Positions 1 to 29,531 of a stretch of 64,000 nt of DNA are shown here, one piece after another. The DNA lies in NCBI RefSeq assembly GCF_003334405.1, contig NZ_QOWM01000006.1. One strand, written 5' to 3'. The stretch comes from Escherichia coli (GTDB lineage Bacteria > Pseudomonadota > Gammaproteobacteria > Enterobacterales > Enterobacteriaceae). The translations under genes and the position numbers were made by a program. The notes under the pieces are model-generated. The model saw nothing but the letters and a program-made list of their open reading frames with translations. It was not told the origin of the DNA and did no database searches. Numbering within the stretch: the stretch's first letter is position 1; every line of letters begins with the position of its first letter.

Positions 1-1682
1 GTACCATGCAGGGCCGTCGCTGGTCCGATGGTCTGCACCAGGCTGTGGAAGCGAAAGAAGGTGTGCAGATCCAGAACGAAAACCAAACGCTGGCTTCGAT
101 CACCTTCCAGAACTACTTCCGTCTGTATGAAAAACTGGCGGGGATGACCGGTACTGCTGATACCGAAGCTTTCGAATTTAGCTCAATCTACAAGCTGGAT
201 ACCGTCGTTGTTCCGACCAACCGTCCAATGATTCGTAAAGATCTGCCGGACCTGGTCTACATGACTGAAGCGGAAAAAATTCAGGCGATCATTGAAGATA
301 TCAAAGAACGTACTGCGAAAGGCCAGCCGGTGCTGGTGGGTACTATCTCCATCGAAAAATCGGAGCTGGTGTCAAACGAACTGACCAAAGCCGGTATTAA
401 GCACAACGTCCTGAACGCCAAATTCCACGCCAACGAAGCGGCGATTGTTGCTCAGGCAGGTTATCCGGCTGCGGTGACTATCGCGACCAATATGGCGGGT
501 CGTGGTACAGATATTGTGCTCGGTGGTAGCTGGCAGGCAGAAGTTGCCGCGCTGGAAAATCCGACCGCAGAGCAAATTGAAAAAATTAAAGCCGACTGGC
601 AGGTACGTCACGATGCGGTACTGGAAGCAGGTGGCCTGCATATCATCGGTACCGAGCGTCACGAATCCCGTCGTATCGATAACCAGTTGCGCGGTCGTTC
701 TGGTCGTCAGGGGGATGCTGGTTCTTCCCGTTTCTACCTGTCGATGGAAGATGCGCTGATGCGTATTTTTGCTTCCGACCGAGTATCCGGCATGATGCGT
801 AAACTGGGTATGAAGCCAGGCGAAGCCATTGAACACCCGTGGGTGACTAAAGCGATTGCCAACGCCCAGCGTAAAGTTGAAAGCCGTAACTTCGACATTC
901 GTAAGCAACTGCTGGAATATGATGACGTGGCTAACGATCAGCGTCGCGCCATTTACTCCCAGCGTAACGAACTGTTGGATGTCAGCGATGTGAGCGAAAC
1001 CATTAACAGCATTCGTGAAGATGTGTTCAAAGCGACCATTGATGCCTACATTCCACCACAGTCGCTGGAAGAAATGTGGGATATTCCGGGGCTGCAGGAA
1101 CGTCTGAAGAACGATTTCGACCTCGATTTGCCAATTGCCGAGTGGCTGGATAAAGAACCAGAACTGCATGAAGAGACGCTGCGTGAGCGCATTCTGGCGC
1201 AGTCCATCGAAGTGTATCAGCGTAAAGAAGAAGTGGTTGGTGCTGAGATGATGCGTCACTTCGAGAAAGGCGTCATGCTGCAAACGCTTGACTCCCTGTG
1301 GAAAGAGCACCTGGCAGCGATGGACTATCTGCGTCAGGGTATCCACCTGCGTGGCTACGCACAGAAAGATCCGAAGCAGGAATACAAACGTGAATCGTTC
1401 TCCATGTTTGCAGCGATGCTGGAGTCGTTGAAATATGAAGTTATCAGTACGCTGAGCAAAGTTCAGGTACGTATGCCTGAAGAGGTTGAGGAGCTGGAAC
1501 AACAGCGTCGTATGGAAGCCGAGCGTTTAGCGCAAATGCAGCAGCTTAGCCATCAGGATGACGACTCTGCAGCCGCAGCTGCACTGGCGGCGCAAACCGG
1601 AGAGCGCAAAGTAGGACGTAACGATCCTTGCCCGTGCGGTTCTGGTAAAAAATACAAGCAGTGCCATGGCCGCCTGCAATAA
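1..1682 (+). CDS. secA: Preprotein translocase ATPase SecA, C-terminal part (5' end lies outside the window)
   Basis: 558-aa ORF open to the window start; ends with the zinc-binding tail [17 protein letters not shown] characteristic of SecA. Confidence 0.95.
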
Positions 1683-1703
1683 AAGCTAACTGTTGAAGTA
1701 AAA

Positions 1704-1727
1704 GGCGCAGGATTCTGCGCCTTTTTT
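1704..1727 (+). terminator. Intrinsic terminator-like hairpin after secA (ggcgcag/ctgcgcc stem plus T-tract)
   Basis: 7-bp perfect stem, 4-nt loop, followed by TTTTTT; lies between the secA stop and the mutT start. Confidence 0.6.
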
Positions 1728-2243: not shown

Positions 2244-2326
<83 letters not shown>

Positions 2327-27614: not shown

Positions 27615-27706
27615 TGCTTCTACCAGGGGCTTAAAGAAGATAAACGTTAGCACACTGCGAGCGAGGCGACGACCATTATTGTCGATTAAATTGTGTCTGC
27701 GGCTTG

Positions 27707-27725
27707 ACCTTCCCGTAAGGGGAAG
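27707..27725. promoter_or_regulatory. CueR (MerR-type) operator in the cueO promoter
   Basis: Dyad ccttccc-gtaag-gggaagg overlapping a cttgac -35-like hexamer, about 55 bp upstream of cueO; matches the known copper-box architecture. Confidence 0.7.
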
Positions 27726-27779
27726 GACTATGCTCAACGTTTGATTTTGTTTCGCCTGCTTAAGAATAAGGAAATAACT

Positions 27780-29330
27780 ATGCAACGTCGTGATTTCTTA
27801 AAATATTCCGTCGCGCTGGGTGTGGCTTCGGCTTTGCCGCTGTGGAGCCGCGCAGTATTTGCGGCAGAACGCCCAACGTTACCGATCCCTGATTTGCTCA
27901 CGACCGATGCCCGTAATCGCATTCAGTTAACTATTGGCGCAGGCCAGTCCACCTTTGGCGGGAAAACTGCAACTACCTGGGGCTATAACGGCAATCTGCT
28001 GGGGCCGGCGGTGAAATTACAGCGCGGCAAAGCGGTAACGGTTGATATCTACAACCAACTGACGGAAGAGACAACGTTGCACTGGCACGGGCTGGAAGTA
28101 CCGGGTGAAGTCGACGGCGGCCCGCAGGGAATTATTCCGCCAGGTGGCAAGCGCTCGGTGACGTTGAACGTTGATCAACCTGCCGCTACCTGCTGGTTCC
28201 ATCCGCATCAGCACGGCAAAACCGGGCGACAGGTGGCGATGGGGCTGGCTGGGCTGGTGGTGATTGAAGATGACGAGATCCTGAAATTAATGCTGCCAAA
28301 ACAGTGGGGTATCGATGATGTTCCGGTGATCGTTCAGGATAAGAAATTTAGCGCCGACGGGCAGATTGATTATCAACTGGATGTGATGACCGCCGCCGTG
28401 GGCTGGTTTGGCGATACGTTGCTGACCAACGGTGCAATCTACCCGCAACACGCTGCCCCGCGTGGTTGGCTGCGCCTGCGTTTGCTCAATGGCTGTAATG
28501 CCCGTTCGCTCAATTTCGCCACCAGCGACAATCGCCCGCTGTATGTGATTGCCAGCGACGGTGGTCTGCTACCTGAACCAGTGAAGGTGAGCGAACTGCC
28601 GGTGCTGATGGGCGAGCGTTTTGAAGTGCTGGTGGAGGTTAACGATAACAAACCCTTTGACCTGGTGACGCTGCCGGTCAGCCAGATGGGGATGGCGATT
28701 GCGCCGTTTGATAAGCCTCATCCGGTAATGCGGATTCAGCCGATTGCTATTAGTGCCTCCGGTGCTTTGCCAGACACATTAAGTAGCCTGCCTGCGTTAC
28801 CTTCGCTGGAAGGGCTGACGGTACGCAAGCTGCAACTCTCTATGGACCCGATGCTCGATATGATGGGGATGCAGATGCTAATGGAGAAATATGGCGATCA
28901 GGCGATGGCCGGGATGGATCACAGCCAGATGATGGGCCATATGGGGCACGGCAATATGAATCATATGAACCACGGCGGGAAGTTCGATTTCCACCATGCC
29001 AACAAAATCAACGGTCAGGCGTTTGATATGAACAAGCCGATGTTTGCGGCGGCGAAAGGGCAATACGAACGTTGGGTTATCTCTGGCGTGGGCGACATGA
29101 TGCTGCATCCGTTCCATATCCACGGCACGCAGTTCCGTATCTTGTCAGAAAATGGCAAACCGCCAGCGGCTCATCGCGCGGGCTGGAAAGATACCGTTAA
29201 GGTAGAAGGTAATGTCAGCGAAGTGCTGGTGAAGTTTAATCACGATGCACCGAAAGAACATGCTTATATGGCGCACTGCCATCTGCTGGAGCATGAAGAT
29301 ACGGGGATGATGTTAGGGTTTACGGTATAA
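27780..29330 (+). CDS. cueO: Multicopper oxidase CueO (Tat-exported)
   Basis: Start placed at [28 protein letters not shown] (twin-arginine signal); Met-rich insert; HCHLLEHED copper site at the C-terminus. Confidence 0.95.
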
Positions 29331-29350
29331 AAAGACCGTATTCGGAAATA

Positions 29351-29370
29351 TGCCCGGATCTCTCCGGGCA
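29351..29370 (+). terminator. Hairpin immediately after the cueO stop (weak or no T-tract)
   Basis: tgcccgga-tctc-tccgggca. Confidence 0.4.
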
Positions 29371-29395
29371 TTAAACTGATGACAAACGCAAATCT

Positions 29396-29494
29396 GCCTG
29401 ATGCGCTACGCTTATCAGGCCTACGCTAGCTGTGCAATCCATTGATTTTGCACAATTTTGTAGGCTGGATAAGGCGTTCACGCCGCATCCGGCA
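29396..29494. repeat. RIP-type BIME (REP - IHF-like site - REP)
   Basis: REP units gcctgatgcgctacgcttatcaggcctac and gtaggctggataaggcgttcacgccgcatccggcat flank a sequence matching the IHF consensus on the reverse strand (aatcaatggattg). Confidence 0.75.
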
Positions 29495-29531
29495 TGAACA
29501 ACGCGCACGTTGTCAGCAATCTGAGCAAGTC

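Follow-up and report, generated by a model that had tools for sequence, protein, structure and literature searches.

[quoted passage not shown]

The window, by which we mean the whole 64-kb stretch of E. coli DNA that was analysed, carries the gene order speD-speE-yacC-cueO-gcd-hpt (Table 1). An AAGGA motif precedes the in-frame ATG of cueO at 27780, and residues are numbered here from that ATG, although the ORF lister opens the frame at a TTG at 27741. The cueO product is the same, residue for residue, as PDB 5b7e_A (1-516), and the crystallised mature chains 1kv7 and 3od3 are identical to its residues 29-516. The NCBIfam CueO equivalog NF008205, for which the cut-off is 525, gives 982.9 bits in a match that takes in residues 1-516 of the protein and positions 1-528 of the 529 in the profile, and the runner-up family, FtsP, scores 297 bits, which lies under its own cut-off of 581. 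Three Pfam multicopper-oxidase domains follow one another in the expected order, namely Cu-oxidase_3 (PF07732, residues 55-165, E 9e-32), Cu-oxidase (PF00394, residues 227-293, E 2e-4) and Cu-oxidase_2 (PF07731, residues 399-516, E 2.5e-23). The ligands of the type-1 and trinuclear copper centres (H101, H103, H141, H143, H443, H446, H448, H499, C500, H501, H505 and M510) are all present, and the N-terminus contains the twin-arginine motif MQRRDFLK, which predicts export to the periplasm. At the nucleotide level, many E. coli chromosomes, in which the gene is annotated as cueO, match the DNA with 100% identity. The stretch from 28740 to 29080 is likewise 100% identical to K-12 MG1655, and the region of the insert was found in 5425 of 5426 complete E. 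coli genomes. In its 516 residues, its whole insert and its yacC-cueO-gcd context, the window protein is indistinguishable from the characterised E. coli CueO (YacK; PDB 1KV7, 1N68, 3OD3, 3NT0; deletion 2YXV). Taken together, we conclude that the window protein is E. coli CueO, with every testable defining feature in place.

Upstream of cueO, the divergent yacC-cueO intergenic region holds a candidate promoter of the type used by CueR, which includes a perfect 7-bp dyad, CCTTCCC-N5-GGGAAGG (27708-27714 and 27720-27726). CueR controls cueO (PMC9302797), and the putative MerR-type promoter fits that published control. A generic sigma-70 scan upstream of cueO, which considered spacers of 16-18 nt only, returned nothing; it misses the candidate because the spacer here is 19 nt long. 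Downstream, the cueO-gcd intergenic region (29331-29531) contains a hairpin just past the cueO stop (29350-29371, ATGCCCGGA-tctc-TCCGGGCAT, with no T-run), which is followed by two REP-like palindromic elements at 29396-29424 and 29460-29494. The hairpin and the REP-like elements probably explain why a query that spans this region gave a median of 29 matches per E. coli genome.

Table 1. Features of the window, with positions counted from its first nucleotide.
Feature	Position	Strand	Basis or detail
STnc40	1658-1727	+	Rfam gathering-score match, 84 bits
naRNA4, two adjacent copies	2131-2207, 2247-2324	+	Rfam gathering-score matches, 78 bits each
tp2 sRNA	13599-13712	-	Rfam gathering-score match, 103 bits
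Putative MerR/CueR-type promoter	27704-27734	+	-35 TTGACC 27704-27709; 19-bp spacer; -10 TATGCT 27729-27734; read by eye
cueO CDS	27780-29330	+	516 codons + stop; periplasmic multicopper (cuprous) oxidase; ATG 27780, stop ends 29330
Tat signal peptide (predicted), residues 1-28	27780-27863	+	PF10518 TAT_signal at residues 1-20, E 7e-4; crystallised mature chains start at 29
Met/His/Gly-rich segment M355-G400	28842-28979	+	Translation (46 residues); composition statistics
Met-rich helix section, residues 355-379	28842-28916	+	Fixed length in close homologues; ligands M355, D360, M358, M362, M364, M368, M376
Insert by homologue alignment, residues ~358-407	28851-29000	+	Column occupancy, loop lengths, 2yxv alignment
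Insert core with <20% column occupancy, residues 361-399	28860-28976	+	117 homologues
Variable His/Gly/Asn/Met tail, residues 380-401	28917-28982	+	Length variation; overlaps loop mostly without electron density
D439-M440-M441 codons	29094-29102	+	D439 and M441 are domain 3 Cu5 ligands outside the insert (roles: PMC11494321)

A preliminary description of this DNA had singled out 46 residues of CueO, placed at 28842-28980, as a Met/His-rich low-complexity insert. The quoted residues are the exact translation of the plus strand there, with an end that lies one base beyond the 46th codon, which closes at 28979. The segment M355-G400 contains 14 Met, 8 Gly and 5 His, so that its Met share is 30.4%, compared with 3.2% in the other 470 residues of CueO. 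The chance of finding at least 14 of the 29 Met of CueO inside one 46-residue stretch is small (hypergeometric P = 8e-9), as is that of the Met count itself against a background of 2.8% (binomial P = 2e-11). The segment also has less entropy than any other 46-aa window within CueO, and the maximum-scoring Met-rich segment of the protein spans residues 355-396. With 15 ATG trinucleotides in 139 nt, the segment is the most ATG-dense stretch across the whole 64 kb, where the average is 2.3 (sd 1.6) and no stretch elsewhere exceeds 9. Among stop-free 46-codon windows in all six frames, it again has the highest Met count (14, next best 8). Composition, entropy and ATG density thus bear out the description of the segment as Met/His-rich and of low complexity. 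The further expectation, that it would look anomalous on any composition scan, held for amino-acid content, ATG content and purine content (99.4th percentile) but not for GC content, which at 53% sits at the 56th percentile of the window.

A second low-complexity stretch of the window lies in yacH (20105-21958, minus strand), which encodes the DUF3300 protein YacH. This protein contains an Asp/His run, DWDDDDHDHHHHDNDDYHHHDGGH, and its C-terminus consists of about four repeats of about 33 aa (…ARERIQSASPEQRQAVRE.MQTNP…). The YacH stretch is possibly metal-binding, and when read off-frame it took second place in the Met-density scan.

The reverse strand at the CueO segment offered no meaningful reading. 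An antisense ORF of 81 aa (28878-29123, minus strand) lies wholly within cueO, and we set it aside as almost certainly a by-product of the sense composition; its product is His-rich because CAT complements the ATG-rich sense strand. An origin of the E. coli segment in tandem or dispersed repeats was likewise considered and rejected. Tandem Repeats Finder detected no DNA tandem repeats in it, and the sole direct repeat is a 10-nt chance pair, which together indicate that the E. coli segment is without an active repeat.

We evaluated the status of the segment relative to other multicopper oxidases by searching 1.84 billion cluster representatives, which yielded 13,880 matches. CueO was then aligned with MAFFT to 117 full-length representatives of 50%-identity clusters (430-660 residues) that are among the best 150 of these matches. 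In this alignment, the columns of residues 313-355 and 408-437 are occupied in 96-100% of the 117 homologues, with that of M355 occupied in 99%. Occupancy falls to 50-56% at residues 358-360 and to 2-19% over residues 361-399, and rises again through residues 400-407. Between the anchor residues 354 and 408, the E. coli loop is 53 aa long, compared with a median of 7 and a 75th percentile of 17 in the homologues, among which lengths range from 1 aa to a maximum of 75. Consistent with these figures, residues 294-398 of CueO fall outside all of the Pfam multicopper-oxidase domains. The twelve canonical copper ligands are conserved in 97-100% of the 117 homologues, whereas just 1-8% of them share the insert ligands D360, M362, M364, M368 and M376. 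For the positions that bind the additional coppers Cu6 and Cu7, described below, conservation is 1-13%, and for M355 at the boundary it is 33%.

Solved structures place the gap at the same point. The engineered deletion chain 2yxv aligns to residues 29-356 and then to residues 407-516. For the solved oxidases other than CueO (Thermus laccase, bilirubin oxidases, FtsP/SufI, Mco, CotA and other multicopper oxidases), the alignment ends at or before residue 357 and restarts at about residues 407-410. The E. coli paralogue FtsP/SufI (PDB 2UXT), which is Tat-exported and shares the multicopper-oxidase-like three-domain fold, is without a Met-rich insert, and its aligned blocks end at 342 and restart at 410. 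FtsP/SufI is also not known to contain copper centres. The multicopper oxidase of Thermus thermophilus (PDB 2XU9 family) has three domains and a short Met-rich hairpin by the type-1 copper site (PMC11494321), and the gap between its aligned blocks is about 6 residues (chain 331 to 338) rather than the roughly 52 of E. coli CueO. The plasmid-encoded copper-resistance oxidases PcoA/CopA (TIGR01480) are periplasmic and have Met-rich regions listed in PMC6155172; their profile scores 119.6 bits on CueO against a cut-off of 479, which indicates a distant relationship only. Column occupancy, loop length, the Pfam gap and the structural alignments all support the earlier proposal of an insert relative to other multicopper oxidases, and the homologue alignment recommended for checking it places residues 361-399 outside the conserved core. 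We regard the segment on this basis as an insert rather than conserved core, with predicted boundaries of about 358/361 to 405/407, which are slightly shifted from the 355-400 given before.

The insert is built of two sections, a helix section with a fixed length of 25 aa and a variable tail of His, Gly, Asn and Met. We compared both sections in the 120 listed closest 90%-identity clusters, which are mostly CueO from Citrobacter with 83-87% identity. The helix section is 25 aa long in 119 of these 120, and the remaining one failed the motif match. Its sequence is nearly invariant in 13 aligned relatives and can still be recognised at 65% identity. The tail, by comparison, is 22, 25, 27, 45 or 50 aa long among the listed close homologues. 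A loop comprising residues 370-398 lacks order in the G304K structure, a trait shared by most reported CueO structures (PMC6155172).

The longest variants of the tail are found in Citrobacter freundii and C. portucalensis, whose CueO (539-544 aa) is 83-84% identical to that of E. coli and differs from it at 4 positions of the helix section. The tail in these proteins measures 45-50 aa, compared with 22 in E. coli, and contains HGNMN-type units. In the cueO of one C. freundii contig (Logan accession SRR24032988, positions 1456-1572 of locus L008), 4 copies of the 15-nt unit CACGGCAATATGAAT (HGNMN), arranged in tandem with an 88% match, encode the insert tail together with a 9-nt repeat. Furthermore, C. 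freundii CueO alleles of 539 aa and 544 aa differ by exactly one 15-nt repeat unit. The E. coli tail keeps only a degenerate remnant of this repeat.

Within E. coli, the length of the insert is stable. In a 30-record spread across the ranking, all matches span exactly 341 bases, save one pseudogene, and five divergent alleles carry 1-4 nucleotide changes in the 139-nt segment, with at most one amino-acid change (G399S) and constant length. A representative of one 90%-identity cluster, P0151, carries G391D within the tail. Two further cluster representatives, P0158 and P0161 (470 and 471 aa, 91% identity), were considered as natural deletions of the insert and rejected: the insert is intact in both, and 45-46 residues are missing on the N-terminal side, from which we infer that they are truncated gene calls. 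The sole weak E. coli match (81%), from strain L37, was considered as a divergent allele, but it is annotated as a frameshifted pseudogene and is uninformative on the insert. The L37 gene (positions 447-1979 of locus L002, NZ_CP034589.1) shows 231 differences from the window allele, many of them indels of 1-3 nt, which concentrate at gene nucleotides ~600-1300, and both neighbours, yacC and gcd, are annotated as intact coding sequences. These differences may stem from sequencing or assembly errors at this locus, or from genuine decay of the gene.

The repeat in Citrobacter raises the possibility that the insert is neutral low-complexity sequence, generated by replication slippage and tolerated in a surface loop. 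The allele-dependent copy number of the 15-nt repeat and the spread of loop lengths from 1 to 75 aa are what such an origin would leave behind. However, the E. coli segment holds no tandem repeat, and its amino-acid sequence and length are held across the sampled E. coli alleles despite synonymous changes. The fixed length of the helix section in 119 of 120 close homologues, the recurrence of Met enrichment at the same loop in distant lineages, and the changed enzyme kinetics after deletion of the insert also argue against neutrality, which we consider the least probable account of the segment.

The Met enrichment extends to homologues in which the sequence of the loop is different. Loops at the insert position in distant homologues contain 16-22% Met regardless of their length, compared with ~3-4% elsewhere in each protein. 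We read this as a sign that thioethers have been selected repeatedly at this position, and not that any one sequence has been conserved. Many homologues with very short loops (5 aa) retain a mini-motif such as GMGxM or GMMxM, and even the minimal loops that adjoin the type-1 copper site (those aligned to 28842-29003) carry one or two Met.

The structural and biochemical literature assigns a copper-handling role to the insert. Enzymes of the CueO type have an extra Met-rich domain over the type-1 copper site, and crystals show three extra copper sites (PMC11494321). The ligands are M355, D360, D439 and M441 for Cu5, M358 and M362 for Cu6, and M364, M368 and M376 for Cu7 (PMC11494321). All of these residues are present in the window CueO at the stated positions. 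The preliminary description had held that the insert binds additional copper and gates the substrate site, and both statements find support in published work. The first rests on the Cu5, Cu6 and Cu7 sites (PMC11494321, PMC6155172, PMC12041951), and the second on the steric hindrance of the type-1 copper site, which concerns bulky phenolic substrates. Deletion of the Met-rich domain raises phenol oxidase activity 33-fold (PMC11494321), and movements of the helix and of the R-loop can expose the type-1 copper site (PMC6155172).

Deletion has the opposite sign on Cu(I), and its extent depends on how Cu(I) is supplied. In earlier assays, deletion of the domain lowered Cu(I) oxidation by ~90%; deletion variants show 10-20% activity on Cu(I)-BCA but are near wild type with electrogenerated Cu(I) and in vivo (PMC11494321). 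[quoted passage not shown] Where Cu(I) is weakly chelated, the domain proved dispensable in the work of 2024-25.

Earlier reports cited in PMC11494321 conflict on the need for Cu6 and Cu7, and it has to be weighed whether Cu6 (M358, M362) and Cu7 (M364, M368, M376) are obligatory substrate-binding and relay stations that feed Cu5 stepwise. The window CueO has all five Met concerned, and they do not vary among the 12 nearest of the 13 aligned relatives, which come from E. coli and Citrobacter and have 83-100% identity; earlier studies cited in PMC11494321 attributed an activity loss of at least 4-fold to removal of Cu6/Cu7. By contrast, single and double Cu6/Cu7 mutants are wild-type-like in solution, on electrodes and in vivo (PMC11494321), these sites were observed to be filled only after soaking a crystal of an inactive mutant without type-1 copper, and their low conservation among the 117 homologues (1-13%) also speaks against an obligatory relay. 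We therefore judge an obligatory relay to be unlikely. The copper binding that matters now appears to be that of Cu5 together with diffuse, transient binding, with Cu6 and Cu7 negligible.

We consider it very probable that the segment is the Met-rich insert of CueO, a Tat-exported periplasmic enzyme converting Cu(I) to Cu(II), that it is spliced into a loop on the surface of cupredoxin domain 3, and that it acts in the following steps. The identity of the protein, the status of the insert, its composition, its conservation and its ligand residues were obtained here, and the steps of the mechanism come from published experiments. The conserved, amphipathic Met-rich helix (residues 355-379) would lie over the type-1 copper site and sterically exclude bulky phenolic substrates. 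M355 and D360 of the insert, with D439 and M441 of the core, would form the labile Cu5 site, which would serve both as the Cu(I) substrate site and as an electron relay to the type-1 copper. Solvent-exposed thioethers of the helix and the tail, probably also His, would bind Cu(I) transiently and pass it to Cu5, and this transient hand-over would let CueO strip Cu(I) from strong chelators. The discrete Cu6 and Cu7 sites of soaked crystals would not be individually required. The flexible tail (residues 380-401) may act in this scheme as a length-tunable capture arm.

Comparison with other oxidases bears on this mechanism in both directions. The CueO of Hafnia alvei (PDB 8R4F; deletion variant 8R4H) folds in the same way as the E. 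coli enzyme, has the Cu5 site and carries a Met-rich domain in the corresponding loop. Its domain is larger and richer in Met, and the enzyme beats E. coli CueO as chelator strength rises (PMC12041951). Against the mechanism stands the Met-rich hairpin of the Thermus enzyme, which behaves otherwise on deletion: phenol oxidase activity is not raised, and electrochemical Cu(I) oxidation is not reduced (PMC11494321).

The weak phenotype of deletion in vivo leaves room for a role of the insert that is mainly non-catalytic, such as the acquisition of copper by apo-CueO at maturation, or the docking of a partner that brings Cu(I), for instance a periplasmic chaperone. The authors of PMC11494321 raised this as a possibility and found that deletion affects survival little. 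CueO is also a Tat substrate, so that the timing of metallation bears on a maturation role. No docking partner is known for the insert, however, the near-normal complementation by deletion variants speaks against an essential docking role, and the purified deletion variants kept catalytic activity. Such a role seems to us very unlikely. Somewhat less probable still is that the Met of the insert form a sacrificial antioxidant shield against reactive oxygen species near the copper centres, repaired by MsrPQ. It has been postulated that Met oxidation could impair CueO, CopA and CusCFBA, and MsrP matters for copper tolerance (PMC9302797). In that study, however, the MsrP effect was traced to CusF in a strain without cueO, and an antioxidant role would leave both the kinetics that depend on chelator strength and the Cu5 ligands of the insert unexplained. 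All four of these alternatives (neutral sequence, obligatory relay, maturation or docking, and antioxidant shield) are less well supported than recruitment of Cu(I) by the insert for delivery to Cu5.

The chief uncertainty about the recruitment mechanism concerns physiology, because variants that lack the Met-rich domain show nearly wild-type copper resistance in vivo under the aerobic (PMC11494321) and anaerobic (PMC12510620) conditions tested. [quoted passage not shown]

The Met-rich insert of CueO, its structure and its deletion phenotypes are published and already known. The only mildly new point here is the two-section anatomy, with a tail that is repeat-driven and variable in length in Citrobacter, which fits the published tuning of activity by domain size and Met content. 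Taken further, the tail could be a slippage-prone, length-tunable Cu(I) capture arm, decayed in E. coli and retaining in C. freundii an active HGNMN repeat with allelic copy-number variation, with copy number under selection, both inside a species and from one enterobacterial species to another, to suit the Cu(I)-chelator strength of the niche. We hold this extension to be doubtful; if it were true, the copy-number-tuned tail would be a contingency-like locus for copper detoxification. The repeat-driven length variation of the Citrobacter tail is in itself a minor lead that fits the tuning of activity by domain size. For genome scans, the segment serves as a positive control, in which an extreme composition outlier proves to be a functional insert of textbook standing, and neither an artefact nor a new element. 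Met-rich segments are a recurring trait of copper-handling proteins, and CueO is the best model for how thioether clusters recruit Cu(I).
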